Source of the DNA: Escherichia coli
GTDB taxonomy: Bacteria > Pseudomonadota > Gammaproteobacteria > Enterobacterales > Enterobacteriaceae
Assembly (NCBI RefSeq): GCF_003334785.1
Contig: NZ_QOWV01000009.1
DNA: 64,000 nt
Strand: one strand, 5' to 3'
The translations under genes were made by a program, and so were the position numbers. The notes under the pieces are model-generated. The model saw nothing but the letters and a program-made list of their open reading frames with translations, ran no database searches and was not told where the DNA came from. The number at the start of each line of letters is the position of its first letter. The first letter of the stretch is position 1. Shown piece after piece: positions 3,120 to 58,637 of the stretch.

Positions 3120-5534
3120 TCACCCCGCAAACTGCCTGAACAGCGCCTTACCCTTAACCAGTCGCGCACCCAGCCAGCCGCCGAAAAGCGACAGCAGCAG
3201 CGCTCCGCTGCACGGCAGAACAATCCACAATCGCCAGTCTGGCTCCCACGGAAAATCAAACACTTTCGCCTGCAACACTGCCAGCGCCGTTTCCGCACCA
3301 ATTGCGGCCACCAGGCCGGAAACAAACCCAAGCATGGCGAACTCACACCACAACGTGGTACGCAGCAGTTTTTTCCCCGCACCGAGTGTGCGCCACACCA
3401 CCAGCTCCTGATGACGCTGACGCATTCCCACCTGCACCTGTGCCAGCAACAGCAACATACCGCAGGCGGTGACCAGTACCACCATCACTTCCAGCGCCCG
3501 ACTTACCTGCTCCAGCACCTGACCGACCTGTTTTAAAATCGCGCCAATATCTAACAGGCTAATGGTCGGGAACTGGCGGTTGAGTTGTGTCAACATGCCG
3601 TTGCCATTCTCCCAGCGGAAACTGGTAAGCCAGCTCTGCGGTTGCCCGTCTAATGCCCCTTCAGGGAAAATAAAATAGAAATTAGGCCGCAGACTTTCCC
3701 AGTCCACTTTGCGCAGGCTGGTCACTTTAGCGCGGAACTCCTGGGTATCGCCCATAAAAGTCACGGTATCACCGAGGGCAACGTTTAAGCGTTTCGCCAG
3801 CCCCTCTTCCATCGACACTTCATCGGCTTTTGGCGGCCAGTTACCGGCGACAATCGGATTATGATCGGGCCGCGTATTTTGCCAGGTAAGATTGAGTTCG
3901 CGGTTAAGCGCCTCATCTTCATTACCTTCTGTCGGCTTATCGTTAATCGCCGTCAGCCGCGCCCGCACCACCGGATAAAACGATTCCGGGACTATCTGAT
4001 GTTCCGCGAGGAACGCTTTTAGCGGTGCTACCTGTTCTGTGGCGATGTTAATTAAAAAGTAGTTCGGGCTTTCTGGAGGTAGCTGCTGCTGCCAGCGGTC
4101 GAGCAGATCGCCACGCAACACCAGCAGCAGTGCCAGCAGCATAAAGGAGAGCGAAAATGCCGAAAGCTGACTTAACGTTGACCACGGCTGACGTAACAGG
4201 CGGCTAACCGCCAGGCGCAGAGGCAGCGATTTCAGCGTCATGCGGCGAAGTACATTCAGCAGCATCCAGCCCAGCACACCGCACAGCAAAGCCAGTACTA
4301 CCGCGCCCGCCAGCACCGCCCAAAGCAGCATGCTGCCACCCATTAATCCGGCGAGCAGCAGCACAACCACCACACTGACAATCGGCAGATAAAACTTCAG
4401 CGGCCAGACGTTCGCTACCACATCATTACGTAATACGCGTAAAGGCTGCGTTGCCAGCAACAAGCGATATGGTCGTAGCCCCACCAGCAGCGAGATGACC
4501 GTCATGGTGCCAAGCGCCCACAGCCACGGCCAGAGGCTGGCTGGCGGTAGTGCAGCAGGCAGAACGGGCTTGAGCAGCACCATCAACACGTTTTCGAACA
4601 ACAGGCCTATGGCCCCACCGGTAACGGCTGAAAGCGTCAGCACCATCAACCACTGACCGACGATTAGCTTACGCAGTTGCGCTCGCCCTGCCCCCAGCGT
4701 TTTGAGGATCGCCACCAGATCGTAGCGACTGCGACAGTAATGATTCATCGCTACCGCCACCGCTGCCACTGCCAGCAGCAAGGTCAGAAGCGCCGAAAGC
4801 AGCAGGAACTGTTGCGAGCGTTCCATCGATCGCCCCAGCGCGCCTTCGTCCTGTTCCAGACCGTACCAGCGTTGTTCGGGTTTAAGCTGAGGTAACAACC
4901 ATTTCTCATAGCCGTCGAGCTGGTTCTCGTTGCCGCCGAATTTATAACGCCAGGTGACCCGACTCCCCGGCTGCACGGCTCCGGTTTTATCGACATCCGC
5001 CAGATTCATCATCAGACGCGGAGCCATCTGGAAGGGGTTAAAACCGGAATCCGGTTCCTGAATCACTTCTCCGGCAATCCGCAAGGTGGCATCGCCCACG
5101 TCAATGGTGTCGCCCGTTTTCAGGTTAAGCAGTGCCATCAGGCGTGGGGCCAGCAATACGCTGCCCGCCTGCGGTTTCAGGCCAGGGGGATTAGTTTGCA
5201 GATCGCCATACATCGGGTAGATATCATCCACCGCTTTGACGTTCGCCAGCTGCGGTGTGTCGCCTGCAAAGGTCATTGTGGCGAAAGTCAGCTGCTTGCC
5301 GACTTTCAGGCCGCGCTTTTGCGCTTCCTCCAGCCACGCTTGCGGCACTTCGCGTGAACTGCGCAACGCCCGATCGCCCGCCATAAACTCACGGCTTTGC
5401 TGGCTTAAGCCCTTCTCCATGCGATCGCTGATATTGCCCAGCGCCAGCACGCAGGCCACCGCCAGGCTTAGCGCCAGCCAGACAATTAATAGCGACGGCG
5501 AACGCCATTCGCGCCAGAACCAACGTGCAATCAT
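3120..5534 (-). CDS. ybbP: ABC transporter permease, MacB/FtsX-type with large periplasmic domains (804 aa)
   Basis: ORF track 3120..5534; multiple TM segments and duplicated FtsX-like permease architecture; start ATG overlaps ybbA stop (ATGA). Confidence 0.9.
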   Translation of the reverse strand: MIARWFWREWRSPSLLIVWLALSLAVACVLALGNISDRMEKGLSQQSREFMAGDRALRSSREVPQAWLEEAQKRGLKVGKQLTFATMTFAGDTPQLANVKAVDDIYPMYGDLQTNPPGLKPQAGSVLLAPRLMALLNLKTGDTIDVGDATLRIAGEVIQEPDSGFNPFQMAPRLMMNLADVDKTGAVQPGSRVTWRYKFGGNENQLDGYEKWLLPQLKPEQRWYGLEQDEGALGRSMERSQQFLLLSALLTLLLAVAAVAVAMNHYCRSRYDLVAILKTLGAGRAQLRKLIVGQWLMVLTLSAVTGGAIGLLFENVLMVLLKPVLPAALPPASLWPWLWALGTMTVISLLVGLRPYRLLLATQPLRVLRNDVVANVWPLKFYLPIVSVVVVLLLAGLMGGSMLLWAVLAGAVVLALLCGVLGWMLLNVLRRMTLKSLPLRLAVSRLLRQPWSTLSQLSAFSLSFMLLALLLVLRGDLLDRWQQQLPPESPNYFLINIATEQVAPLKAFLAEHQIVPESFYPVVRARLTAINDKPTEGNEDEALNRELNLTWQNTRPDHNPIVAGNWPPKADEVSMEEGLAKRLNVALGDTVTFMGDTQEFRAKVTSLRKVDWESLRPNFYFIFPEGALDGQPQSWLTSFRWENGNGMLTQLNRQFPTISLLDIGAILKQVGQVLEQVSRALEVMVVLVTACGMLLLLAQVQVGMRQRHQELVVWRTLGAGKKLLRTTLWCEFAMLGFVSGLVAAIGAETALAVLQAKVFDFPWEPDWRLWIVLPCSGALLLSLFGGWLGARLVKGKALFRQFAG

Positions 5535-6217
5535 GCTTCCTCCTGCAACTGCCCGTTCACCAGCCGTAAGCAGCGGTCGCAGCGTGCCGCCAGTTGCAGG
5601 TCGTGGGTCACCATAATCAACGTGGTGCCATGTTCACGGTTGAGGGAAAACAGCAGGTCGGCAATTTTATCGCCCGTCTGGCGGTCAAGGTTGCCGGTGG
5701 GTTCGTCGGCAAACAGCACATCAGGTCGACCATTAAAGGCTCGTGCCAGCGCCACTCGTTGCTGTTCACCGCCGGAAAGCTGTGCCGGAAGATGATCCAG
5801 ACGTTTACCCAGCCCTAACTGTTCGAGCAACGCTTTCGCCCCGTTACGACTTTCCGCGCTACTCTCACCGCGCAGCAGAGCCGGAAGCTCGACGTTTTCC
5901 AGCGCGTTAAGGGTAGGAATTAACATAAATGACTGAAAAACAAAGCCGACGTGCTTCGCGCGCAACTTTGCCCGCGCTTCTTCGTCCATATTATGTAGCG
6001 GTTGTCCCACCAGACTCACTTCGCCACTGCTGCCGTCATCAAGCCCGGCGAGGATCGCCAGCAAGGTTGACTTACCCGATCCCGACTCGCCCACCAGTGC
6101 GATGGTCTCGCCACGTTTGACAACCAGCTCAACTCCGGTGAGGATGGAGAGTTCATGCTCCCCCTGACCGACGGACTTCTTAAGATGATGAACTTCAACA
6201 ATGTTTTCCGCTGGCAT
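5531..6217 (-). CDS. ybbA: ABC transporter ATP-binding protein
   Basis: Walker A GESGSGKST, ABC signature LSGGEQQRVALARA, Walker B LFADEPTGNLD; 4-bp overlap with ybbP. Confidence 0.92.
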   Translation of the reverse strand: MPAENIVEVHHLKKSVGQGEHELSILTGVELVVKRGETIALVGESGSGKSTLLAILAGLDDGSSGEVSLVGQPLHNMDEEARAKLRAKHVGFVFQSFMLIPTLNALENVELPALLRGESSAESRNGAKALLEQLGLGKRLDHLPAQLSGGEQQRVALARAFNGRPDVLFADEPTGNLDRQTGDKIADLLFSLNREHGTTLIMVTHDLQLAARCDRCLRLVNGQLQEEA

Positions 6218-6811
6218 TTGCCCTTCCTGTTCCTGGTCCTGTTAACCTTCCGTGCCGCCGCAGCGGACACGTTATTGATTCTGGGTGATAGCCTGAGCGC
6301 CGGGTATCGAATGTCTGCCAGCGCGGCCTGGCCTGCCTTGTTGAATGATAAGTGGCAGAGTAAAACGTCGGTAGTTAATGCCAGCATCAGCGGCGACACC
6401 TCGCAACAAGGACTGGCGCGCCTTCCGGCTCTGCTGAAACAGCATCAGCCGCGTTGGGTGCTGGTTGAACTGGGCGGCAATGACGGTTTGCGTGGTTTTC
6501 AGCCACAGCAAACCGAGCAAACGCTGCGCCAGATTTTGCAGGATGTCAAAGCCGCCAACGCTGAACCATTGTTAATGCAAATACGTCTGCCTGCAAACTA
6601 TGGTCGCCGTTATAATGAAGCCTTTAGCGCCATTTACCCCAAACTCGCCAAAGAGTTTGATGTTCCGCTGCTGCCCTTTTTTATGGAAGAGGTCTACCTC
6701 AAGCCACAATGGATGCAGGATGACGGTATTCATCCCAACCGCGACGCCCAGCCGTTTATTGCCGACTGGATGGCGAAGCAGTTGCAGCCTTTAGTAAATC
6801 ATGACTCATAA
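6185..6811 (+). CDS. tesA: Thioesterase I / lysophospholipase L1, SGNH hydrolase with signal peptide
   Basis: GDSLSAGY motif after signal peptide MMNFNNVFRWHLPFLFLVLLTFRAAAA; start chosen at ATG 6185 rather than track start 6155; 5' end overlaps ybbA start on the opposite strand by 33 bp. Confidence 0.9.
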   Translation: MMNFNNVFRWHLPFLFLVLLTFRAAAADTLLILGDSLSAGYRMSASAAWPALLNDKWQSKTSVVNASISGDTSQQGLARLPALLKQHQPRWVLVELGGNDGLRGFQPQQTEQTLRQILQDVKAANAEPLLMQIRLPANYGRRYNEAFSAIYPKLAKEFDVPLLPFFMEEVYLKPQWMQDDGIHPNRDAQPFIADWMAKQLQPLVNHDS

Positions 6812-7610
6812 AGCAACGGAGATCCTGACAGGTAAAGTTATGCAAAAATCGGTCTTAATTACCGGATGTTCCAGTGGAATTGGCCTGGAAAGCGCGCTCG
6901 AATTAAAACGCCAGGGTTTTCATGTGCTGGCAGGTTGCCGGAAACCGGATGATGTTGAGCGCATGAACAGCATGGGATTTACCGGCGTGTTGATCGATCT
7001 GGATTCACCAGAAAGTGTTGATCGCGCAGCCGACGAGGTGATCGCCCTGACCGATAATTGTCTGTATGGGATCTTTAACAATGCCGGATTCGGCATGTAT
7101 GGCCCCCTTTCCACCATCAGCCGTGCGCAGATGGAACAGCAGTTTTCCGCCAACTTTTTCGGCGCACACCAGCTCACCATGCGCCTGTTACCCGCGATGT
7201 TACCGCACGGTGAAGGGCGTATTGTGATGACATCATCGGTGATGGGATTAATCTCCACGCCGGGTCGTGGCGCTTACGCGGCCAGTAAATATGCGCTGGA
7301 GGCGTGGTCAGACGCACTGCGCATGGAGCTGCGCCACAGCGGAATTAAAGTCAGCCTGATCGAACCCGGTCCCATTCGTACTCGCTTCACCGACAACGTC
7401 AACCAGACGCAAAGTGATAAACCAGTCGAAAATCCCGGCATCGCCGCCCGCTTTACGTTGGGACCGGAAGCGGTGGTGGACAAAGTACGCCATGCTTTTA
7501 TTAGCGAGAAGCCGAAGATGCGCTATCCGGTGACGCTGGTGACCTGGGCGGTAATGGTGCTTAAGCGCCTGCTGCCGGGGCGCGTGATGGACAAAATATT
7601 GCAGGGGTGA
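6801..7610 (+). CDS. ybbO: Short-chain dehydrogenase/reductase (NAD(P)-dependent oxidoreductase)
   Basis: TGCSSGIGLE Rossmann motif and YAASKYALE catalytic YxxxK; overlaps tesA stop by 11 nt. Confidence 0.9.
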   Translation: MTHKATEILTGKVMQKSVLITGCSSGIGLESALELKRQGFHVLAGCRKPDDVERMNSMGFTGVLIDLDSPESVDRAADEVIALTDNCLYGIFNNAGFGMYGPLSTISRAQMEQQFSANFFGAHQLTMRLLPAMLPHGEGRIVMTSSVMGLISTPGRGAYAASKYALEAWSDALRMELRHSGIKVSLIEPGPIRTRFTDNVNQTQSDKPVENPGIAARFTLGPEAVVDKVRHAFISEKPKMRYPVTLVTWAVMVLKRLLPGRVMDKILQG

Positions 7611-8555: not shown

Positions 8556-8581
8556 GCCGGATGCGATGCTGCGCATCCGGC
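8556..8581. terminator. REP-like hairpin between convergent cnoX and fetB
   Basis: GCCGGATGCG-atgct-CGCATCCGGC perfect 10-bp stem. Confidence 0.5.
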
Positions 8582-8587
8582 ATCGCA

Positions 8588-9367
8588 TCATTTCTTCTTC
8601 AATTGCGTCACCACCAACTGGTGGCGCGAATTATAAAACTTACGATAGGTTAAATAGCAGGCAATAATGGTCGACAAGCTGGCGGTTGAGAGCAGCATAA
8701 AGGTCACCATAATCTGATATTTAATCGCCTTCACCGGATCAATCCCGGCAAATATCAGCCCGGACATCATTCCTGGTAAACTCACTAAGCCAACCGTTTT
8801 TGCTGAATCGACCGTCGGAATTAAAGCCGCGCGAATACTGTCGCGAATCAATATCGCTGAAGCCTGCTTCGGCGTCGCACCAAGACTCAGTTTCTCCTGA
8901 ATCTGTTGCTGTTCGCTAATGACCCGTTGCCCTAAATTGTTGTAACACAACCCCACCGCTACCATGGCGTTACCGGCAATCATCCCGGCGATAGGGATCA
9001 CCTGCATCGGGATAAATTCAATCGACCCTGAGAGAATCAGCACCGCCAGGGTAATTCCCGCCCCGACCGTAATGGCAATAAACGATGAGATAAAAGCTTT
9101 AGCAATATATTTACTGCGTTTTTGCGCGTTCCACGCCGCATTAAAGCAGATAAATAACACCATCAATAATGTCAGGCTGGCATCATCCACGCTGAAAATA
9201 TACTTCAGCACATAGCCGACAATAATCAGCTGAATTATCGCTCGCCCGACGCTCCAGAGAATATCTTTCTCCAGCGCCAGTTTTTCTTTATGGCTAATTA
9301 AGATTGCCACCACCACCAGCATTAATGCCAGTGCTAATGATTCGTTAGTAATATTATGCGAGTTCAT
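8588..9367 (-). CDS. fetB: Iron-export ABC transporter permease
   Basis: Hydrophobic multi-TM protein; start MNSHNITNESL at 9367 (track start 9394 is an upstream extension); overlaps fetA 3' end by 14 nt. Confidence 0.85.
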   Translation of the reverse strand: MNSHNITNESLALALMLVVVAILISHKEKLALEKDILWSVGRAIIQLIIVGYVLKYIFSVDDASLTLLMVLFICFNAAWNAQKRSKYIAKAFISSFIAITVGAGITLAVLILSGSIEFIPMQVIPIAGMIAGNAMVAVGLCYNNLGQRVISEQQQIQEKLSLGATPKQASAILIRDSIRAALIPTVDSAKTVGLVSLPGMMSGLIFAGIDPVKAIKYQIMVTFMLLSTASLSTIIACYLTYRKFYNSRHQLVVTQLKKK

Positions 9368-22474: not shown

Positions 22475-22481
22475 TTTCATT

Positions 22482-22515
22482 GCAGCCAAAGGCAAACTTT
22501 GGCTGCATCGTTTTA
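22482..22515 (+). terminator. Terminator downstream of fsr
   Basis: GCAGCCAAAG-gcaaa-CTTTGGCTGC then ATCGTTTTA. Confidence 0.6.
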
Positions 22516-28911: not shown

Positions 28912-28949
28912 GAAAAGAAAAATGCCGGATGACACGAAGGTCATCCGGC
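28912..28949 (-). terminator. Intrinsic terminator downstream of htpG
   Basis: Minus-strand hairpin GCCGGATGAC-cttcgt-GTCATCCGGC followed by ATTTTTCTTTTC. Confidence 0.7.
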
Positions 28950-28955
28950 ATTACA

Positions 28956-30910: not shown

Positions 30911-30939
30911 CGAGAGCAGGTGATCCTGCTCTCGTTTGC

Positions 30940-36051: not shown

Positions 36052-39000
36052 TTACCCTACCGCTGGCGTCGGGTCATCGCCTTTGTAGTCGCGTTTTACT
36101 TCCGTCACCTCATCGCCCTTCTCGTTGTGCAGATGCACTTCAAGCTGGTTAAAGGCAATGTTGATGTCGTTTTCACGGCACAGCTGATCGATAGTACGGT
36201 TCAGCTCATCGACAGTACGACTACGGTCACGCAGTTCACGCACATACAGACGCAGCTCATGATCCAACGTGCTGGCACCAAATGCCGTAAAGAAGACTTC
36301 CGGCATTGGTTCGTGCATCACCCTTGGGTGCTCAGTCGCCGCCTTCAGTAACACTTTACGCACTTTTTCCAGATCGGAGCCATAGGCCACGCCGAGACGG
36401 ATCACCAGACGCGTAGTAGTGTCAGTCAACGACCAGTTGATCAGACGCTCGGTAACAAACGCTTTGTTCGGGATGATCACTTCTTTGCGATCGAAATCGG
36501 TAATCGTTGTCGCACGAATACGGATCTTACTTACCGTCCCCGAGAAGCTACCAATGGTTACCGTATCGCCAATACGCACCGGACGTTCGAATAGAATGAT
36601 CAAACCGGAGACGAAGTTACCGAAAATTTCTTGTAAACCAAAACCAAGACCTACGGATAATGCTGCGGCCAGCCACTGGAGTTTATCCCAAGAGACGCCC
36701 AGCGATCCGAACACCGTCATCGCACCAACAGCAATAATGATGTAGTTAAGGATGGTAGTAATGGCATACGACGCGCCCTGGCGCATATTCAGTCGCGAGA
36801 GCACCAGCACTTCCAGTAAACCAGGCAGGTTGCGAATCAACGCCCAGGCCACCATTGAGGCGATAATCGCAAACAACAGACTGCCCATGGTGACGTTTTT
36901 CACCACCGCAGCGCCAGCTTCAGTGCCGTTGTAATGCCAGAGCGTGATGCTGTCGAGATAGCTGAACACGGTGATCAAATCGGACCAAATTGCCCAGAAC
37001 ATGACACCGAACAGCGCAAACATCAGCAACATGGTAATACGCAGCGTCTGCTGGTTAACTTGCTCCAGTGCAATGGTGGGTTCTTCCGGCGGTTCAGCAC
37101 CTTCTGCGCCCTCTTTCACCAGATTCTGCCGACGCGCCAGCGCACGACGCCAGGCGATACGCCGCGCCGCTACGCTTAAGCCACGCAGTACCGTCTGGTA
37201 CAGCAGGTTCCAGATGATCACCAGATAAACGGTTTCAATCCAGCGTCCTGCCAGACGCAGCGTAGTGTAGAAGTAGCCTGTAGCAGTCAGCACCATCAGC
37301 GCAATCGGGATTATCGACAGCACGGTAATGGTGACCAGTCGCATGGTGTGCGACTCTTTATCACGCCAGCTTTCGCGGCACATCGGCCATACCAGGAAGG
37401 CAATCAGCAGCAGGTTGAAGAAAATCATCGCTTGCCCCAGCACATCATCCATCAGATGCAGCGGGGAAAGTTCTGCCACCACAGACCAGAAATGGATAGG
37501 CAGCAATGCGAGACTGATGCGGACAATTTGCCGACGCCAGTGGCTGGTCTGCTGTTCCGGCATGCCGAAGTGACGTACGGCAACGCCGTTTTTCTCCAGT
37601 ACCTTCCAGCACAGGCCAAACACCAGCCAGAATATCGCCAGTTTTTTGCTGAACGACCATAGCAGTTCGCTGATGTTGAGCTGCATGGTCAACAGAATCA
37701 GGCCAACCGCGAGAATAATCAGGCACACCGGCAGCGCACGGATCAGGTCGATAAGGATCGCTTTTGGTGTGTTGAGCTGGCTGTCGTTACGCAGGGAACC
37801 CACAGCGGAAGCCAGTTTTTGTTGATACGCTTTCAGCCAGCCCAGACGCCAGTGGATCAGCCCGGCAATCAACAGCAGCGGCAAACCAGCGAGGAAAGCG
37901 ATAAAAACGGCGGGCCAGGCTTTTTGCCAGTTCACCGTGATTTTCATCGACTTAAATTCATCTTTCAGGCTTTGCGGGAACGCTTTGATCCAGTCCCAGT
38001 CCATTGGACGGTTACTGTTCACCCAAAAGATTTGCTGAGTCAGGATGGATTTCAGGTTTTTCGACACACTCATTAACTGCTGCTGGTTGATTTGCAGGTT
38101 AATGGCCATCATCAGCTGGTTACCCAACTGTTTGTTGAGTTGATCCAGCAATTCGCGACGCATATCAACCACTTGCAATAACGCATCGTGAACTTCGCTG
38201 TTGACTTCGTTGGTGTGACCTTCTTCCAGTTTGTTGACGAACGCATCGCTCTGGAAGAGTGCATCACGCTGCTGGTTAACTTCAAACTGTTCGAGACGCA
38301 AATCCGCGATGCGGTTGGTCATGTTTTCCAGTTCATCCGCCGAGGGCAGCGTTTGTTGTTGCTGGTAAAGGATACGAGACAACAGCAGGCTGCCCTTCAG
38401 GACGGCAATCTGCTCTTTAATATTGCGTTCCGATTGCAGCGCCCGCTCCAGCCAGTTTTTGACTTTAATGTTTTGCTGCATCAACTGATTACCGTTTTCA
38501 GTCGCGGTAATCAGACGCTGACTTAACTGCTGGTTAATTTCCAGTTCCTGCTTCACCAGCGGATTAGCCTGAATACGCGCGGCTTCATCCGGGGAGACGG
38601 CTTCCTGCGCCGTTTTTTCGGTTAAAGTCAGGCGCTTGCTGTTTACCGCTTCTTGCAACAGTTGTAACTGGTGCTCCAGACGAGCGCTGTTCGCCGTCAC
38701 GTAATCACGTTGCTTTTGCAAGGTATCCTGCAAGACGGTGTTCCCTTCCAGGCTTTTACGCTGCTGGTCAATCTCCGCATTCAGCAACGCCTGCTGGGCC
38801 TGCATTAACACTTTCTGGCTGGGACGTAAGGCTGTCTCGCCGACATCAGTCCCATCCAGACGACTGCGAATTTGTTGCAGCTGCTGCGAAGCGTTATACA
38901 TCGCATTTTGCACGCGTTCGGGCTGCGTCTGTAACGAAACCAGCTGGCTGTTATAAGACGCCAGATCGTTTTGTGCGTTTTGCAAATCGTCCAGCGCCTG

Positions 39001-39414
39001 GGCAACGCGAGTTTCCAGCTGGCGCAACGACAGCGTGCTCAGAATTTTGCGCGTTTCTTCGTCGTTATCGACATCGCTAAGTGCTGTTAACGCCGCGGTC
39101 GCCTGGCGCATTTTTTCCGGCGCTTCAGCGACTTTTTGCCGTAGCTGAACTGTCTCTTCTTTTATGCGATCGATTTTATCGAGGGTGGCTAATGTATCTG
39201 TCAGATCCTGCTGCACCAGTTTGTCCTGAGCAGAAAGATCTTTTTGTTTATTTAGTGAGTCAAGTTGCGCCTGCAGGTCCGCTTTTGTCGGCAGATCACC
39301 ATTCGATGACGCCCGCGCAAACGCCGTGTTCTGGCATAACAAGACAAAAACAAAAGCAATAAATGCTGAAAAAACAAAATGCCGTGATCGTTTGTAATAC
39401 TGGAACATAGTCAT
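36052..39414 (-). CDS. mscK: K+-dependent mechanosensitive channel (MscS family, large periplasmic N-terminal domain)
   Basis: 1120 aa; coiled-coil periplasmic region, multiple TM helices and MscS-like C-terminal domain. Confidence 0.93.
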   Translation of the reverse strand: MTMFQYYKRSRHFVFSAFIAFVFVLLCQNTAFARASSNGDLPTKADLQAQLDSLNKQKDLSAQDKLVQQDLTDTLATLDKIDRIKEETVQLRQKVAEAPEKMRQATAALTALSDVDNDEETRKILSTLSLRQLETRVAQALDDLQNAQNDLASYNSQLVSLQTQPERVQNAMYNASQQLQQIRSRLDGTDVGETALRPSQKVLMQAQQALLNAEIDQQRKSLEGNTVLQDTLQKQRDYVTANSARLEHQLQLLQEAVNSKRLTLTEKTAQEAVSPDEAARIQANPLVKQELEINQQLSQRLITATENGNQLMQQNIKVKNWLERALQSERNIKEQIAVLKGSLLLSRILYQQQQTLPSADELENMTNRIADLRLEQFEVNQQRDALFQSDAFVNKLEEGHTNEVNSEVHDALLQVVDMRRELLDQLNKQLGNQLMMAINLQINQQQLMSVSKNLKSILTQQIFWVNSNRPMDWDWIKAFPQSLKDEFKSMKITVNWQKAWPAVFIAFLAGLPLLLIAGLIHWRLGWLKAYQQKLASAVGSLRNDSQLNTPKAILIDLIRALPVCLIILAVGLILLTMQLNISELLWSFSKKLAIFWLVFGLCWKVLEKNGVAVRHFGMPEQQTSHWRRQIVRISLALLPIHFWSVVAELSPLHLMDDVLGQAMIFFNLLLIAFLVWPMCRESWRDKESHTMRLVTITVLSIIPIALMVLTATGYFYTTLRLAGRWIETVYLVIIWNLLYQTVLRGLSVAARRIAWRRALARRQNLVKEGAEGAEPPEEPTIALEQVNQQTLRITMLLMFALFGVMFWAIWSDLITVFSYLDSITLWHYNGTEAGAAVVKNVTMGSLLFAIIASMVAWALIRNLPGLLEVLVLSRLNMRQGASYAITTILNYIIIAVGAMTVFGSLGVSWDKLQWLAAALSVGLGFGLQEIFGNFVSGLIILFERPVRIGDTVTIGSFSGTVSKIRIRATTITDFDRKEVIIPNKAFVTERLINWSLTDTTTRLVIRLGVAYGSDLEKVRKVLLKAATEHPRVMHEPMPEVFFTAFGASTLDHELRLYVRELRDRSRTVDELNRTIDQLCRENDINIAFNQLEVHLHNEKGDEVTEVKRDYKGDDPTPAVG

Positions 39415-39541
39415 GATGAATGAAGGTTTCTGAACCTGAAGAACGACCTGAAAAAGTCAAACCGCAAGAATATCACGACGCAGTGAACCAGAATAGCAAC
39501 GACGAAAATGTCCAGGAAAAATCCTGGAGTCAGATTCAGGG

Positions 39542-40189
39542 TTATTCGTTAGTGGCAGGATTACGAAGCGTGGGGCACAGGAGATACATCTCCAGTAAGA
39601 TGGCAACGTAATCGCGGGCTTCTTTTTTAAGATCAAAAGATTGCGGGGCAAAGAGCCAGTTTTCCATCAGGCCGGAAATATAGCCGCGCATAATAATTGC
39701 TGCGCGACGCGTCATTAAATCCGCAGGCAACATTTTCGCTTCAATACAATGTTTTAACGTTTGTTCTATACGGTCATAACTTTCCAGACAGAGATTACGT
39801 TGTGCCTGTTGCACAACAGCCATTTCTCCGACAAATTCGCATTTGTGGAATATAATCTCCATCAATAATCGACGCCGTTCTTCTGTCACCGTGGATTCAA
39901 GAACATGAATTAATATCTCTCTTAATACTGAGAGTGGATCGCCAGGGAATTTTGCCTGATACTCAAGCTCTAGTTCACCAATATTGGATTCTGACAGTTC
40001 CCAGATCTCACTGAACAAATCCGACTTGTCTTTAAAATGCCAGTAGATTGCACCGCGCGTAACGCCAGCTGCTTTTGCAATCTCGCCCAGCGAGGTGGAT
40101 GATACCCCCTGCTGTGAGAAAAGACGTAGAGCCACATCGAGGATGTGTTGGCGCGTTTCTTGCGCTTCTTGTTTGGTTTTTCGTGCCAT
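39542..40189 (-). CDS. acrR: TetR-family repressor of acrAB
   Basis: N-terminal TetR HTH; divergent from acrA across an operator palindrome. Confidence 0.93.
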
Positions 40190-40217
40190 ATGTTCGTGAA
40201 TTTACAGGCGTTAGATT

Positions 40218-40241
40218 TACATACATTTGTGAATGTATGTA
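40218..40241. promoter_or_regulatory. AcrR operator, 24-bp inverted repeat in the acrR-acrA divergent region
   Basis: TACATACATT-TGTG-AATGTATGTA, perfect 10-bp arms. Confidence 0.8.
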
Positions 40242-40330
40242 CCATAGCACGACGATAATATAAACGCAGCAATGGGTTTATTAACTTTTGACCATTGACC
40301 AATTTGAAATCGGACACTCGAGGTTTACAT

Positions 40331-41524
40331 ATGAACAAAAACAGAGGGTTTACGCCTCTGGCGGTCGTTCTGATGCTCTCAGGCAGCTTAGCCCTAACAG
40401 GATGTGACGACAAACAGGCCCAACAAGGTGGCCAGCAGATGCCCGCCGTTGGCGTAGTAACAGTCAAAACTGAACCTCTGCAGATCACAACCGAGCTTCC
40501 GGGTCGCACCAGTGCCTACCGGATCGCAGAAGTTCGTCCTCAAGTTAGCGGGATTATCCTGAAGCGTAATTTCAAAGAAGGTAGCGACATCGAAGCAGGT
40601 GTCTCTCTCTATCAGATTGATCCTGCGACCTATCAGGCGACATACGACAGTGCGAAAGGTGATCTGGCGAAAGCCCAGGCTGCAGCCAATATCGCGCAAT
40701 TGACGGTGAATCGTTATCAGAAACTGCTCGGTACTCAGTACATCAGTAAGCAAGAGTACGATCAGGCTCTGGCTGATGCGCAACAGGCGAATGCTGCGGT
40801 AACTGCGGCGAAAGCTGCCGTTGAAACTGCGCGGATCAATCTGGCTTACACCAAAGTCACCTCTCCGATTAGCGGTCGCATTGGTAAGTCGAACGTGACG
40901 GAAGGCGCATTGGTACAGAACGGTCAGGCGACTGCGCTGGCAACCGTGCAGCAACTTGATCCGATCTACGTTGATGTGACCCAGTCCAGCAACGACTTCC
41001 TGCGCCTGAAACAGGAACTGGCGAATGGCACGCTGAAACAAGAGAACGGCAAAGCCAAAGTGTCACTGATCACCAGTGACGGCATTAAGTTCCCGCAGGA
41101 CGGTACGCTGGAATTCTCTGACGTTACCGTTGATCAGACCACTGGGTCTATCACCCTACGCGCTATCTTCCCGAACCCGGATCACACTCTGCTGCCGGGT
41201 ATGTTCGTGCGCGCACGTCTGGAAGAAGGGCTTAATCCAAACGCTATTTTAGTCCCGCAACAGGGCGTAACCCGTACGCCGCGTGGCGATGCCACCGTAC
41301 TGGTAGTTGGCGCGGATGACAAAGTGGAAACCCGTCCGATCGTTGCAAGCCAGGCTATTGGCGATAAGTGGCTGGTGACAGAAGGTCTGAAAGCAGGCGA
41401 TCGCGTAGTAATAAGTGGGCTGCAGAAAGTGCGTCCTGGTGTCCAGGTAAAAGCACAAGAAGTTACCGCTGATAATAACCAGCAAGCCGCAAGCGGTGCT
41501 CAGCCTGAACAGTCCAAGTCTTAA
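40331..41524 (+). CDS. acrA: Multidrug efflux periplasmic adaptor (membrane fusion protein), lipoprotein
   Basis: Lipobox LALTGC; start at ATG 40331 (MNKNRGFTPLAVVL...). Confidence 0.95.
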   Translation: MNKNRGFTPLAVVLMLSGSLALTGCDDKQAQQGGQQMPAVGVVTVKTEPLQITTELPGRTSAYRIAEVRPQVSGIILKRNFKEGSDIEAGVSLYQIDPATYQATYDSAKGDLAKAQAAANIAQLTVNRYQKLLGTQYISKQEYDQALADAQQANAAVTAAKAAVETARINLAYTKVTSPISGRIGKSNVTEGALVQNGQATALATVQQLDPIYVDVTQSSNDFLRLKQELANGTLKQENGKAKVSLITSDGIKFPQDGTLEFSDVTVDQTTGSITLRAIFPNPDHTLLPGMFVRARLEEGLNPNAILVPQQGVTRTPRGDATVLVVGADDKVETRPIVASQAIGDKWLVTEGLKAGDRVVISGLQKVRPGVQVKAQEVTADNNQQAASGAQPEQSKS

Positions 41525-41543: not shown

Positions 41544-44696
<3,153 letters not shown>

Positions 44697-49578: not shown

Positions 49579-49968
49579 ATGCTGGTTTCTTGCGCAATGC
49601 GACTTCACTCGGGCGTTTTTCCAGATTATGCTGAAAAATTACCTCAGGAAGAAAAGATGGAAAAAGAAGATTCATTTCCCCAACGCGTCTGGCAAATCGT
49701 CGCCGCTATTCCCGAAGGCTATGTCACCACTTACGGTGATGTGGCGAAACTGGCGGGATCGCCCCGCGCCGCGCGCCAGGTGGGCGGTGTGTTAAAGCGT
49801 CTCCCTGAAGGCAGCACCTTACCCTGGCACCGGGTGGTTAATCGCCACGGCACAATTTCGCTAACCGGACCGGATTTACAGCGTCAGCGACAGGCATTAC
49901 TGGCAGAAGGTGTGATGGTATCGGGAAGCGGGCAAATCGACTTGCAGCGTTATCGCTGGAACTACTAA
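49579..49968 (+). CDS. atl: Alkyltransferase-like protein (MGMT-like DNA-binding domain without the active-site Cys)
   Basis: 129-aa product with PWHRVV in place of the PCHRV motif of O6-alkylguanine alkyltransferases; start at 49579. Confidence 0.9.
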   Translation: MLVSCAMRLHSGVFPDYAEKLPQEEKMEKEDSFPQRVWQIVAAIPEGYVTTYGDVAKLAGSPRAARQVGGVLKRLPEGSTLPWHRVVNRHGTISLTGPDLQRQRQALLAEGVMVSGSGQIDLQRYRWNY

Positions 49969-49990
49969 CCCTCTCCGGGCGGAGAGGGTT
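49967..49990. terminator. Hairpin between convergent atl and ybaY (no T-run, terminator function uncertain)
   Basis: AACCCTCTCC-gggc-GGAGAGGGTT, perfect 10-bp stem. Confidence 0.45.
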
Positions 49991-49998
49991 AACGTCGC

Positions 49999-50571
49999 TT
50001 AATATTGCGTAGGAGCTGGAACTGCCGAAGACGGATTCACCTGAGTTGGTGAAGTCGAAGGTACGGTAGTCGTTGCGCCACCGCTGGCCTGAACCGGCAC
50101 GGCGGTTTGCTGTACCGGCACCAATGTCAGGTCGGCTTTAGTTCCGCCCTGGTTGATCACCGGCTGAACGGTATCGGTGATAAATACCTGTTTGTCATTC
50201 ACGGTAATCGCCGCACTCAACAGAATACGCGCGTTCGGCTGAACATCTGCCGGGTTAAATGGCAGAACAAAGCTGAATGGTGACTGTTTACCTTCAGTAC
50301 GCACCGCTTTCTGCGCCAGCACTTTTGACGGTGCATCGGCTAACGACGCGTCAGAAAGTGTCACGGTCAGCACAGCATCAGGCGGCAGTGCGACTTTCTG
50401 ACGGATCCAGACGGTACCGGAGACATTCGGTTGCTGGATAGCTGGTTGTTGTGTTGCTGAAATAGACGTATTTGCAGCCGGTGCTGGCGTCTGAATATCC
50501 GCGCTTTTATCTGCGCAAGCCGCCAACGCAATCGCAACCGCTAAACCACTGGCCATGTGCACGAGTTTCAT
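49999..50571 (-). CDS. ybaY: Lipoprotein of unknown function
   Basis: Signal peptide with lipobox LAAC; Pro/Thr/Ala-rich C-terminus. Confidence 0.88.
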   Translation of the reverse strand: MKLVHMASGLAVAIALAACADKSADIQTPAPAANTSISATQQPAIQQPNVSGTVWIRQKVALPPDAVLTVTLSDASLADAPSKVLAQKAVRTEGKQSPFSFVLPFNPADVQPNARILLSAAITVNDKQVFITDTVQPVINQGGTKADLTLVPVQQTAVPVQASGGATTTVPSTSPTQVNPSSAVPAPTQY

Positions 50572-50788
50572 TCATTTCTCCTTATTATCAATGCACCAGC
50601 GGGCTAACTTTCCTCGCCGGAAGAGTGGTTAACAAAATAGTAACGTCAACAAGTGTGGCACACATCACGCATTTCTGCCTGTAATTAGCCCGTAATTCAG
50701 ACCATTGCACCCATCGGACCAGTAGCAAATTTGCGTTATACTCAACTCACTTTGGCTTGCTGCGGCAGCTTTGTTACTGGAGAGTTAT

Positions 50789-51649
50789 ATGAGTCAGGCG
50801 CTAAAAAATTTACTGACATTGTTAAATCTGGAAAAAATTGAGGAAGGACTCTTTCGCGGCCAGAGTGAAGATTTAGGTTTACGCCAGGTGTTTGGCGGCC
50901 AGGTCGTGGGTCAGGCCTTGTATGCTGCAAAAGAGACCGTCCCTGAAGAGCGGCTGGTACATTCGTTTCACAGCTACTTTCTTCGCCCTGGCGATAGTAA
51001 GAAGCCGATTATTTATGATGTCGAAACGCTGCGTGACGGTAACAGCTTCAGCGCCCGCCGGGTTGCTGCTATTCAAAACGGCAAACCGATTTTTTATATG
51101 ACTGCCTCTTTCCAGGCACCAGAAGCGGGTTTCGAACATCAAAAAACAATGCCGTCCGCGCCAGCGCCTGATGGCCTACCTTCGGAAACGCAAATCGCCC
51201 AATCGCTGGCGCACCTGCTGCCGCCAGTGCTGAAAGATAAATTCATCTGCGATCGTCCGCTGGAAGTCCGTCCGGTGGAGTTTCATAACCCACTGAAAGG
51301 TCACGTCGCAGAACCACATCGTCAGGTGTGGATCCGCGCAAATGGTAGCGTGCCGGATGACCTGCGCGTTCATCAGTATCTGCTCGGTTACGCTTCTGAT
51401 CTTAACTTCCTGCCGGTAGCTCTACAGCCGCACGGCATCGGTTTTCTCGAACCGGGGATTCAGATTGCCACCATTGACCATTCCATGTGGTTCCATCGCC
51501 CGTTTAATTTGAATGAATGGCTGCTGTATAGCGTGGAGAGCACCTCGGCGTCCAGCGCACGTGGCTTTGTGCGCGGTGAGTTTTATACCCAAGACGGCGT
51601 ACTGGTTGCCTCGACCGTTCAGGAAGGGGTGATGCGTAATCACAATTAA
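50789..51649 (+). CDS. tesB: Acyl-CoA thioesterase II (double hotdog fold)
   Basis: 286-aa product from ATG 50789 ([20 protein letters not shown]...). Confidence 0.93.
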
Positions 51650-51688
51650 AAAAATAGCCGGAGGTGAAAACCGTCCGGCTGTTTTTTG
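51650..51688. terminator. Bidirectional intrinsic terminator between convergent tesB and amtB
   Basis: AAAAAT-AGCCGGA-ggtgaaaaccg-TCCGGCT-GTTTTTTG, stem flanked by A-run and T-run. Confidence 0.75.
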
Positions 51689-51697
51689 CAGTGCTTG

Positions 51698-52984
51698 TTA
51701 CGCGTTATAGGCATTCTCGCCGTGGCTGTTGACATCCAGCCCTTCTCGCTCCTGCTCTTCCGGTACACGCAGACCAACCGTCAGATCCGCCAATTTGTAG
51801 CCGATAAATGCCACAACACCGGACCAGACGATCGTAATGGCGATGCTTTCCAGCTGTACCAGCAACTGATGGCCCATCGTCACACCTTCAGCGAAGCCCA
51901 CGCCGCCCAGCGAGCTGGCGGCAAAAATCCCGGTCATGATACAGCCGACAATGCCACAAACGCCGTGCACACCGAAGACATCGCAGGGATCATCCACCCG
52001 CAGCAAGCGTTTGAGCATGGTAACGCCCCACAAGCCCGCCAGACCAGCTACCACGCCGATAATCAACGCGCCGCCAACCCCAATGTAGCCGCAGGCTGGC
52101 GTCACGCCGACCAGACCGGCAATCGCGCCAGAACACGCCCCCAGCAGTGAAGGCTTACCACGCAGCGCCCATTCACCGAAGATCCAGCCAAGAATTGCCG
52201 CCGCCGTTGCGACCACAGTATTCACAAATGCCAGTGCCGCGATTTCATTCGCCGTGCCCGCTGACCCGGCGTTAAAGCCAAACCAACCGATATAGAGAAT
52301 GGCAGTCCCGGTGAAGACCATCGGCAGGTTGTGCGGTTTAAACGCCTCTTTACCGAAGCCCACGCGTTTTCCTATCAGATACGCGCCCACCAGACCGGCG
52401 ATTGCGGCGTTAATGTGCACCACGGTGCCACCCGCGAAATCCAGCGCACCGTGAGAAGCCAGCAAACCACCGCCCCACACCATATGCGCAATCGGAATGT
52501 AAGAGAGCGTCAGCCATACCACCACGAAAATCAACACAGCTGAGAAGCGGATTCGTTCCGCCAGCGCCCCAACTATCAAGCCGACGGTAATGCAGGCAAA
52601 CGATCCCTGAAACGCCACGTGGATATACTGATAAATGCTGCCCATCACCGCCGTCAGTTCGATGTTTTTCAGCATCAACCAGTTAATGTTGCCGAAGAAG
52701 TTGTTGCCCTCACCAAACGCCAGCGAGTAACCGTAAACCACCCAGAGAATACAGACCAGTGCAAATGTCACCGTCACCTGCGTCAGCATCGACAGCACGT
52801 TTTTGCCGCGAATCAACCCACCGTAAAACAGGGCAATCCCCGGAATAGTCATAAACAGCACCAGCGCAGTACAAATCATCATAAACGCATTGTCGGCTTT
52901 ATCGGCCACCGCAGGTGCAGCCATTACCAGTCCCGGAAGCATCGCCAGTGAAGCAAGCCCAGTTTTTATCGTCGCTATCTTCAT
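51698..52984 (-). CDS. amtB: Ammonium channel (Amt family)
   Basis: 428 aa with signal peptide and 11 TM helices; immediately downstream of glnK. Confidence 0.95.
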   Translation of the reverse strand: MKIATIKTGLASLAMLPGLVMAAPAVADKADNAFMMICTALVLFMTIPGIALFYGGLIRGKNVLSMLTQVTVTFALVCILWVVYGYSLAFGEGNNFFGNINWLMLKNIELTAVMGSIYQYIHVAFQGSFACITVGLIVGALAERIRFSAVLIFVVVWLTLSYIPIAHMVWGGGLLASHGALDFAGGTVVHINAAIAGLVGAYLIGKRVGFGKEAFKPHNLPMVFTGTAILYIGWFGFNAGSAGTANEIAALAFVNTVVATAAAILGWIFGEWALRGKPSLLGACSGAIAGLVGVTPACGYIGVGGALIIGVVAGLAGLWGVTMLKRLLRVDDPCDVFGVHGVCGIVGCIMTGIFAASSLGGVGFAEGVTMGHQLLVQLESIAITIVWSGVVAFIGYKLADLTVGLRVPEEQEREGLDVNSHGENAYNA

Positions 52985-53013
52985 TTTTCGTTCCTGTTGC
53001 TGTGTGCCAGAGA

Positions 53014-53352
53014 TTACAGCGCCGCTTCGTCGGCTTCGCCGGTACGAATACGAATGACGCGTTGCAATTCAGCGACGAAGATTTTGCCGTCGCCAATTTT
53101 TCCGGTGTAAGCCGCCTTACTGACGATATCGATCACTTCATCGAGTTGGTCATCAGCAATCGCCACATCAATTTTTACTTTTGGCAGGAAATTGACGCTG
53201 TATTCCGCCCCCCGGTACAGCTCGGCATGCCCTTTCTGACGCCCGAAACCTTTCACTTCGGTGACGGTCAGGCCCTGAATACCAATGGAAGATAACGCTT
53301 CACGAACGTCTTCCAGCTTGAATGGTTTGATTATCACGGTCACCAGCTTCAT
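53014..53352 (-). CDS. glnK: Nitrogen regulatory protein PII-2
   Basis: 112-aa PII protein MKLVTVIIKPFKLEDVREAL... with T-loop RGAEY (uridylylation Tyr51); start at 53352. Confidence 0.95.
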   Translation of the reverse strand: MKLVTVIIKPFKLEDVREALSSIGIQGLTVTEVKGFGRQKGHAELYRGAEYSVNFLPKVKIDVAIADDQLDEVIDIVSKAAYTGKIGDGKIFVAELQRVIRIRTGEADEAAL

Positions 53353-53403
53353 AGATCCCCTCCGGTCAGAATTCGGTAATGGTTCTGCTACACGAAGAAG
53401 GTA

Positions 53404-53420
53404 TTGCAAGCGGTGTGCCA
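53404..53420 (-). promoter_or_regulatory. sigma54 (-24/-12) promoter of glnK-amtB
   Basis: Minus strand TGGCAC-ACCGC-TTGCAA, a perfect match to TGGCAC-N5-TTGCA, about 50 nt upstream of the glnK start. Confidence 0.8.
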
Positions 53421-53473
53421 GAAATGAAAAACGAGAAAGAGAGCAGGAAGTTAAGAAGTTTGAAAATGAAAAC

Positions 53474-53488
53474 GCACTATGACAGTGC
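53474..53488. promoter_or_regulatory. Candidate NtrC enhancer site upstream of the glnK sigma54 promoter
   Basis: Palindrome GCACT-ATGAC-AGTGC resembling the NtrC consensus TGCACCA-N3-TGGTGCA, about 60 bp upstream of the -24 element. Confidence 0.55.
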
Positions 53489-53532
53489 ACAGTGCGTTAC
53501 ATTTTTGCACCAACGATGAAATATTGCGCTAT

Positions 53533-57079
<3,547 letters not shown>

Positions 57080-57108
57080 GCGTTGTGTCCTGACCTGATT
57101 CTGGATAT

Positions 57109-57567
57109 TTATTCGATGGGTAAAGAAGTGGTGTATTTAATCTGTTCCATCGCGAAGCTGGAAGTGACGTCCGACAGCCCCGGCACGCTGTTTACCAGAC
57201 GCTTATAAAACTCGTCGTAGCGTTTCATGTCGGCAACCTGGACGCGCATCAGATAATCGTATTCACCAGCCATGCGCCAGAACCCCAGCACTTCTGGCAT
57301 TTCGGTAACCACCGTGACAAAGCGGCAATACCATTCGCTGCTGTGATGTTGCGTTTTTATCAGCACAAAAGCGGTCAGGCCGAGGCCTATTTTTTCCGGA
57401 TCCAGCAGGGCGACTTTGCCGATAAGGATACCGTCGTCCTCCAGCCGTTTCAGGCGCTTCCAGCAAGGGGGGGTTGTCAGATTAACGGCTTCAGCCAGTG
57501 CCTGCAAAGAGAGGGTGCAATCCTGCTGCAGTAAGGCCAGCAGCTTACGGTCAATTTTATCTAACAT
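57109..57567 (-). CDS. decR: Lrp/AsnC-family transcriptional regulator
   Basis: 152-aa product from 57567 ([16 protein letters not shown]...), HTH plus RAM domain. Confidence 0.88.
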
Positions 57568-57719
57568 AGCCCTTCCACAGAGAATTTTTTTCTCTTTTAA
57601 TTTTATTTTAAAGGTGAAATCACGACAATTTATTCTGTGCGGTTTAAACACCACGGCACAAAATGACAAATTCAACGCAAAAAAAACCGGGCAATTGCCC
57701 GGTGCTGGAAGGGATCTCG

Positions 57720-58538
57720 TTATTCGGGGGAATAAGGTAGATGTGGATAGTCCAGCCAGTGCGTCAAATAGTGAGAGACAGCCTGATTTCGGCAATGTCC
57801 AATCACCGGTAAATGCGGGAGCTCCGCGCGCAGTTGCGGCATCGCATTGCCCATAATAAATCCGCTACCGACGCTGACTAACATTTCGCGATCGTTCATC
57901 GCATCACCAAAGGCCATGCAATCGCGCAACGATAAACCTAAATGTTGGGTCAGCACCGTCAATGCAGCGCCTTTATTGCAGCCCACCGGCAGCACTTCGA
58001 GGCAATCCGTGGCGGAAAAACACAAATGTGCACGCTCGCCTAATGCTTCGTATAGCTGGATCTGCAAGCGTGTAAGATCGTCGTGATCGCCACAGAAGCA
58101 GATCTTGGTGACGCTGCCGAGTGGCATTTTTTTGACATCGATTATCTGATAACGAAAACCGCTATAGACAAATGCCTGCAACAACGCAGGGATCTCTTTC
58201 CCGGTAAACCAACCGTCGTCATTGAAGATATGCATGCTGGCTCGGGTATCCCATTGCTGATACAGCACCAGCTCCGCGACATCCGCAGGTAAATCATCAC
58301 GATGTAAAAGTTCACCTTCCAGAGAATGCACGCGCGTTCCGTTGCCGGTAATCAAATACGCATCCAGCGATAGCGCCCCGAGAATATGCTGCATCTCCAG
58401 CGCATGACGCCCCGTGGCAAAAGTGAGGGTAATGTCGCGTTCACGCAGTCGCGCCAAAGTAGAGAGGGTTTTCTCACCTAAATGATGGTCAGGCATCAAT
58501 AAAGTGCCATCCATATCAAATGCTGCCAGACGAGCCAT
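57720..58538 (-). CDS. cof: HAD-superfamily phosphatase (HMP-PP phosphatase, Cof subfamily)
   Basis: HAD motif I FDMDGTLL; start at 58538. Confidence 0.9.
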
Positions 58539-58637
58539 TTCTTTCTCCACTCTGTGACACGGTTAATGGTGATTGAGTATCACCTGATATATACGGAAGT
58601 AATAGTGAATAGTTAAATAATATTGTTCCGGGTTTAT

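Follow-up and report, generated by a model that had tools for sequence, protein, structure and literature searches.

The gene for the repressor AcrR and the genes for the AcrAB pump are transcribed divergently, and the short region between their start codons holds a perfect palindrome. The locus raises the question of whether this palindrome is the operator of AcrR, how it is placed with respect to the promoters on either side, and what its intact state can tell about the strain. An earlier note on this DNA had described a 24-bp palindrome with perfect 10-bp arms around TGTG, lying between the divergent acrR and acrA starts within 40190-40330, and had interpreted it as the AcrR operator. The chief intrinsic multidrug efflux pump of E. 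coli is AcrAB-TolC, whose expression rises when repression by AcrR is lost. All positions below are those of the window, by which we mean the whole stretch of 64,000 nt that was analysed. The genes and the palindrome were located as follows:

39542-40189, minus strand: acrR, a 215-residue TetR-family repressor, open reading frame without internal stop, annotated WP_000101737.1
40187-40189, minus strand: start codon of acrR
40190-40330: acrR-acrA intergenic region, 141 bp from start codon to start codon
40218-40227: left arm of the operator, TACATACATT, from the repeat finder
40232-40241: right arm of the operator, AATGTATGTA, from the repeat finder
40331-41524, plus strand: acrA, the 397-residue periplasmic adaptor of an RND pump, with its ATG at 40331
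41547-44696, plus strand: acrB, the 1049-residue RND permease, following acrA

The palindrome between acrR and acrA is the published AcrR operator

Open reading frames, annotation and NCBIfam models agree in placing the palindrome between divergently transcribed acrR and acrAB, and the interval given for it in the earlier note proved to be exactly the 141-bp intergenic region. AcrR scored 419 bits against the AcrR equivalog model NF007949 (cutoff 271), and AcrA scored 885 bits against its equivalog model NF011604 (cutoff 765). Pfam assigned TetR_N to residues 16-62 of AcrR and TetR_C_2 to residues 84-202, and the protein matched crystallised E. coli AcrR (2QOP and 3BCG) over its full length, residues 1-215, with E = 1.6e-141 for 2QOP. 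The cognate repressor is present and intact, a member of the TetR family with an N-terminal helix-turn-helix.

Reading of the sequence, a pattern search and a repeat finder all placed the 24-mer TACATACATT-TGTG-AATGTATGTA at 40218-40241, and by the repeat finder its two arms are 10 nt each and 100% complementary, separated by the 4-nt spacer TGTG. For the search, the operator was defined as the 24-bp inverted repeat 5'-TACATACATTTGTGAATGTATGTA-3' as printed in PMC10597343. This full word was exact and unique at 40218-40241 in the 64-kb window, letter for letter the published AcrR binding site (PMC10597343). The pattern gave one match in the window at up to three mismatches, compared with none in 100 dinucleotide-preserving shuffles, and no second AcrR site was found within the 64-kb window at that tolerance. 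The identification in the earlier note is supported. We found no evidence that contradicts it, and we regard it as almost certain that the palindrome is the AcrR operator, embedded in the bidirectional PacrA/acrR promoter described below.

A search for perfect inverted repeats (arms of 10 nt or more, loops of at most 10 nt) gave 15 matches in the window, corresponding to about nine separate sites once overlapping registers are considered, against a simulated background with a mean of 1.15 (20 first-order Markov simulations). The AcrR operator is A+T-rich and lies within a divergent promoter, whereas several of the other inverted repeats are G+C-rich hairpins similar to REP elements or terminators. 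Further perfect repeats with arms of this length are at 8556-8589, 19353-19376, 22481-22507, 28922-28951, 30911-30934, 49966-49991 and 61582-61606; most are G+C-rich, with GCCGGATG in several, and lie near the ends of annotated genes, and they have the look of REP elements or terminators.

The operator, the repressor gene and the pump genes are in the K-12 state

The 901 bases around the operator matched many E. coli chromosomes at 100% identity, among them K-12 MG1655, C600 and J53, in which the matching bases are annotated acrR and acrA. A base-for-base alignment of the window to the MG1655 record NZ_CP032667.1 showed nine differences in 64,000 positions and none between 28522 and 50188, such that acrR, acrA, acrB and the intergenic region do not differ from those of E. 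coli K-12 MG1655. This is the comparison of the acrR coding sequence and operator with a wild-type reference that had been proposed earlier, and the statement that no disrupting substitution or IS insertion is present in acrR or the operator was borne out: in the alignment to NZ_CP032667.1, acrR, the operator, acrA and acrB carry neither a substitution nor an IS element. The operator is real and was correctly interpreted; it is a textbook element, already known, and here it has its wild-type form. Nothing separates it from the AcrR operator of E. coli K-12, the 24 bp, the flanking genes and the promoter context being identical; that operator is attributed to Su, Rutherford and Yu (2007) in the quotations given by PMC10597343 and PMC12825309.

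The nine differences from NZ_CP032667.1 are at 7313, 28521, 50189, 50262, 51178, 54717, 57471, 58491 and 61068. Seven of the nine fall within 50000-61500, a stretch that is essentially identical (shown as 100.0%) to non-K-12 strains such as UMNF18 and EH09-18-41. The window therefore probably stems from a strain closely related to K-12, not MG1655 itself.

The operator overlaps the elements of a bidirectional promoter

PacrA/acrR has been described as a bidirectional promoter with a shared -10 element (PMC12825309, 2026), bidirectional promoters being defined as those whose divergent starts lie 10-23 bp apart, flanking or within a shared -10. The 54-nt promoter sequence in Table S2 of that paper matched the window exactly at 40216-40269. 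A consensus promoter scan, independent of the paper, returned TTTACA-18 bp-TACCAT at 40216-40245. Together with the literature on MarA, SoxS and Rob, the following regulatory elements were placed:

40169-40189, minus strand: marbox (MarA/SoxS/Rob), encoded by the first 21 nt of the acrR coding sequence (PMC11642870)
40216-40221, plus strand: acrAB -35, TTTACA, from the promoter scan; the hexamer mutated in the 'acrA down' construct (PMC12825309 Table S2)
40240-40245, plus strand: acrAB -10, TACCAT, from the promoter scan and PMC12825309 Table S2
40241-40249, minus strand: acrR extended -10, TGCTATGGT, from the text and Table S2 of PMC12825309
40264-40269, minus strand: acrR -35, CTGCGT, a weak consensus match, replaced by TTGACA in the 'acrR up' construct (PMC12825309)

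By both the promoter scan and the Table S2 match, the operator overlaps the -35 and -10 core elements of the acrAB promoter. Its first four bases are the last four of the -35 and its last two are the first two of the -10, the arms contributing TACA and TA, respectively, and promoter and operator may be regarded as one object. The acrA -10 TACCAT (plus strand) and the acrR hexamer TATGGT (minus strand) share 5 bp at 40241-40245. From the marking of Table S2, transcription of acrA would start near 40251 and that of acrR near 40234, inside the right arm of the operator, each to within 1-2 nt. With these starts the operator would cover about -33 to -10 with respect to acrAB, including all of the spacer between the -35 and the -10, and about -7 to +17 with respect to acrR. 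The marbox, located by sequence, lies upstream of the acrAB -35 and inside acrR, and is conserved across Enterobacterales; in the MarA paper we found no acrAB marbox sequence in print.

Just downstream of the operator is a block, 40242-40278 (CCATAGCAcGac.ATAaTaTaAACGCAGCAATGGGTTT), which includes the shared -10 and the acrR -35 and is strongly conserved across 85 loci whose AcrR is at least 55% identical, mostly from Enterobacterales. The acrA leader also holds an imperfect inverted repeat, 40260-40268 and 40273-40281, with a GCAA loop. The fold of the leader (40251-40345) was no better than that of shuffled sequences (z = -0.54) and had no Rfam match, and the GCAA-loop hairpin at 40260-40281 was dropped as unsupported.

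The operator arms recur at distant acrR-acrA loci

One genome per species (GTDB r220, 298 Gb) was scanned with the pattern ACATACATT-N4-AATGTATGT, which gave at least 120 loci, and linkage was checked by tblastn with AcrR, AcrA and AcrB of the window. Among the 120 matches listed, 111 (92%) sit between divergently transcribed AcrR and AcrA homologues. Eighteen of the 20 arm positions are thus exact, by construction, in at least 111 species. As the set was selected by exact identity at 18 of 24 positions, it shows the reach of the site and not its frequency among acrR-acrA regions. Eighteen fixed bases would be expected to give about four matches by chance in 298 Gb, by our estimate.

Among the matches listed, the two outer bases of the arms, which the pattern left free, were T and A at 105 of the 111 acr-linked loci, compared with two of the nine unlinked ones. 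At the 25 loci whose AcrR is less than 50% identical to that of E. coli (33-45%), the flanks (60 bp on the left of the site, 110 bp on the right) were essentially without information. Unlike the exactness of the 18 searched positions, the outer bases, the uninformative flanks and the 92% linkage do not follow from the choice of pattern, and they point to selection on the arms. The bases following the right arm at distant loci favour TA-TAnT, and the -10 seems to abut the operator there too.

Within Enterobacterales, AcrR was 55-98% identical among the matches listed, and the distance from the dyad to the acrR start was constant at 39-42 bp. The sites found farther afield were the following:

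Aeromonas: arm-bearing loci with AcrR 37-42% identical
Betaproteobacteria: exact arms in Acidovorax, Ottowia, Comamonas, Polaromonas, Ramlibacter, Rivibacter, Aquabacterium, Herminiimonas, Silvimonas and an Oxalobacteraceae strain, with AcrR 33-45% identical
Alphaproteobacteria: exact arms in Inquilinus, with AcrR 38% identical
Glaciimonas: a locus with the arms that ends before any acrR
Distant acr-linked loci taken together: exact arms with AcrR 33-45% identical, including L009, L013, L014, L024, L039, L050, L067, L073, L080, L087, L096, L100, L104, L121 and others

The four-base spacer (40228-40231 in the window) showed an orientation. Its fourth base, on the acrA side, was G in 107 of the 111 acr-linked loci among the matches listed, mostly following a pyrimidine. 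On the acrR side, the first base was the mirror C in 41 of the 111 and T in 69, including E. coli. Where a species has CATG or CGCG as its spacer, the palindrome is perfect over all 24 bp.

Nine of the 120 matches listed were unlinked (L020, L030, L041, L044, L052, L056, L058, L074 and L082). Eight of these have no TetR gene nearby and lie in DNA of low or moderate G+C content (26-48%). We set these eight aside as AcrR-type operators, as they look like chance palindromes or hairpins.

The breadth of the exact arm conservation and the oriented spacer asymmetry are the only mildly new material here. Among the open-access papers searched we found no earlier description of either, those that print both arms and concern AcrR being about E. 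coli.

AcrR is the regulator that best accounts for the site

The palindrome might be used mainly by a regulator other than AcrR, such as the paralogue EnvR/AcrS or another factor, with AcrR in a secondary role. EnvR/AcrS is reported to repress acrAB. AcrR itself scores 179 bits on the acrEF/envCD regulator model NF007430, meaning that a paralogue with a similar DNA-reading head exists, and AcrR-type reading heads and operators are widely shared. However, the site adjoins the acrR homologue itself in at least 111 species, and purified AcrR binds and represses at it (PMC10597343, PMC12825309, PMC9769551). We thus judge it very improbable that AcrR is the secondary user. Use by EnvR/AcrS is possible as an addition to AcrR, not as a substitute for it.

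A perfect 10-bp stem with a 4-nt loop could also form in RNA, and the palindrome would then act as a hairpin, terminator or attenuator of the acrR or acrA transcript. The positions of the starts argue against this, as acrA transcription would begin downstream of the palindrome, and that of acrR within its right arm, so that neither transcript would hold both arms. Moreover, no T-run follows the palindrome and the terminator scan reported nothing there, and no Rfam family was found in 39000-41500 even at E up to 1. Across species the arms keep their sequence without compensatory changes while the loop varies, a pattern of base-specific readout by protein. A role in RNA has next to no probability in our estimation. 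That the palindrome arose by chance, or as a by-product of the pseudo-symmetrical DNA that PMC12825309 ascribes to bidirectional promoters, and has no operator function, is hardly credible, given that no shuffle produced a match, that the axis of the shared -10 lies near 40243 and the dyad of the palindrome at 40229/40230, and that the arms are exact in taxa with unrelated flanking promoter sequence.

Repression and derepression at the AcrR operator

For the AcrR operator reading, our analysis covers sequence, position, gene identities, reference identity and conservation, and binding, repression in both directions and release by ligands are taken from publications. Purified AcrR shifts acrAB promoter DNA in EMSA (PMC10597343; PMC9769551). 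At PacrA/acrR, transcription in both directions is repressed by AcrR in vitro (PMC12825309). In the presence of ethidium, putrescine, cadaverine or spermidine, AcrR is kept from binding the promoter and acrAB is induced (PMC9769551). These reports fit a mechanism in which AcrR would bind both 10-bp arms, possibly as a dimer of dimers, an arrangement that has been 'suggested' in the literature (PMC10597343). Bound AcrR would keep RNA polymerase off both promoters, such that the pump genes and its own gene would be repressed; because the operator spans elements of both promoters, repression in both directions could be achieved by steric exclusion. Ethidium and the three polyamine ligands would bind the C-terminal domain of AcrR, causing it to leave the DNA and derepressing acrAB. 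Independently of AcrR, acrAB would be activated by MarA, SoxS or Rob through the marbox at 40169-40189, which lies immediately upstream of the -35. Activation of acrA by SoxS is reported to lower acrR transcription through competition for RNA polymerase (PMC12825309). In one study, deletion of acrR alone had little or no effect on the MICs of chloramphenicol, tetracycline and novobiocin (PMC12825309 Table 1), suggesting that the operator tunes expression and is not a strong switch.

The wild-type operator is the ordinary state among E. coli genomes

The intact operator had been held to be worth recording, as mutations in it or in acrR were considered a common route to multidrug resistance. For acrR this is well founded, lesions in the gene being documented as a route to efflux-mediated resistance (literature including PMC11642870). 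For operator mutations we found nothing comparable in the literature. We determined how common the intact state is in 5426 complete E. coli genomes, with the following result:

141-bp intergenic region: present in 5424 of the 5426 genomes, at least 99% identical in 5420
44-bp core, 40208-40251: without mismatch in 5364 genomes, with one mismatch in 30, without a megablast match in 32
901 bp (acrR and the intergenic region): 43 genomes without a single place covering at least 80%

Matches to the 44-bp core had to cover at least 80% of the query, so the mismatch-free matches contain the whole 24-mer, which makes the operator exact in no fewer than 98.9% of the genomes. At most 62 of the 5426 have a promoter/operator core that deviates or finds no match. 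With the 24-mer exact in at least 5364 of the 5426 complete genomes, the intact state adds little as a record; the wild-type operator is the ordinary condition, common to about 99% of sequenced E. coli. An acrR interrupted by IS1 or IS481 elements is found in a minority, about 1% of genomes, and among the genomes listed the disruptions affect acrR or its junction, not the arms. For the present strain, a wild-type operator, repressor and pump genes mean only that there is no efflux-derepressing lesion at this locus; they are silent on marR, soxR and rob.

IS1 splits acrR in W409, WP5-S17-ESBL-10, TA8571 and XD35, whose loci are otherwise identical; these natural acrR knock-outs were still counted as contiguous. 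In E. coli Z1323CEC0008 (NZ_CP148461.1, locus L124, 1463-2548) a gene for an IS481-family transposase lies between the acrR start and the operator, and the intergenic match begins at query base 22, which is window position 40211. This insertion parts the marbox from the acrAB promoter, and the transposase coding sequence extends 48 bp into the acr promoter region.

The AcrR operator compared with those of related repressors

TtgR of Pseudomonas putida and SmeT of Stenotrophomonas belong to the same subfamily as AcrR (Pfam PF08361), with E of about 1e-44 for TtgR against AcrR, and share its layout, in which repressor gene and pump operon are transcribed away from each other and a pseudo-palindromic operator covers the promoter. 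The TtgR and SmeT operators contain AATGTA-type half-sites. Their published operators are imperfect palindromes and appear to differ from the AcrR arms. QacR IR1 of Staphylococcus aureus is unrelated in sequence, yet the 'dimer of dimers' proposed for AcrR is modelled on it. IR1 is a long inverted repeat of 28 bp over the pump promoter that is bound by two dimers of a TetR-family protein; the pump is of the MFS and not the RND type, and QacR is not known to be autoregulatory.

The closest structural guide to how AcrR might read its operator is MtrR of Neisseria gonorrhoeae, a member of the same TtgR/AcrR subfamily, AcrR scoring 167 bits on the MtrR model and E = 2.4e-32 against an MtrR PDB chain. 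The PDB entries found for AcrR were 2QOP and 3BCG from E. coli, and 3LHQ, with no AcrR-DNA complex named among them. MtrR is a global regulator, whereas AcrR acts mostly locally. In crystal structures of MtrR with DNA, contacts come from T11, R44, G45, Y48, W49 and H50, and the consensus is MCRTRCR-N4-YGYAYGK (PMC8053128). At an alignment offset of 1 these residues correspond to T12, R45, G46, Y49, W50 and H51 of AcrR, and bases of the AcrR operator would be contacted by R45, G46, Y49, W50 and H51. In 23 distant AcrR homologues the N-terminal 66 residues were 62% identical to E. coli AcrR and the rest 28%, and the recognition helix T44-R45-G46-A47-I48-Y49-W50-H51-F52 was at least 90% conserved, with I48 at about 70%. 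Since operator word and recognition helix alike hardly vary among distant Proteobacteria, DNA-binding modules and operators of the AcrR family should be largely interchangeable. This is relevant to the design of AcrR/TtgR biosensors (PMC12693512) and to the prediction of acrAB-type regulation in unstudied species.

The MtrR half-site MCRTRCR fits ACATACA in each AcrR arm. The half-sites are spaced by 4 bp for MtrR, whereas ACATACA and TGTATGT are 8 bp apart in the AcrR operator. By analogy with MtrR, the AcrR 24-mer could be seen as a pair of MtrR-type 18-mers that overlap with a shift of 4 bp, which would fit two dimers. The first of these, at 40219-40236, has one mismatch, and its mirror at 40223-40240 has two, the latter as read by eye. 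Searched by itself, MCRTRCR-N4-YGYAYGK gave four matches in the window compared with 2.56 expected, which is not significant alone, and we dropped it as standalone evidence and kept it as a homology-based hint. The G at the fourth spacer base, mostly following a pyrimidine, forms with it the YpG step that is read by R44 of MtrR, and thus fits a reading as two MtrR-type sites. We put forward, tentatively and as a proposal that may well be wrong, that the operator is an unusually frozen regulatory word across distant acrR loci whose spacer asymmetry fits two overlapping MtrR-type dimer sites of unequal strength, possibly repressing acrAB and acrR unequally.

Other repeats and an unlinked palindrome

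A direct repeat of 78% identity links 40187-40204 with 40220-40237, CATATGTTCGTGAATTTA across the acrR start codon resembling CATACATTTGTGAATGTA in the central part of the operator. In addition, AGGTTTACATA, comprising the ribosome-binding site and start of acrA (40321-40331), resembles AGATTTACATA at the left edge of the operator (40213-40223). Both likenesses may be due to chance.

Of the unlinked matches listed, only that of a Desulfovibrio sp. (L058) has an adjoining TetR gene. At about 5993-6045 this locus holds a perfect palindrome of about 52 bp, gttccttcacctta-AACATACATTCACGAATGTATGTT-taaggtgaaggaaca, which lies between a TetR-family gene (5121-5720, plus strand) and a gene for a putative 414-residue membrane transporter (6055-7299, plus strand) with many hydrophobic segments, MFS-like by eye. 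An operator core like that of AcrR may be used there by another pair of TetR regulator and transporter.
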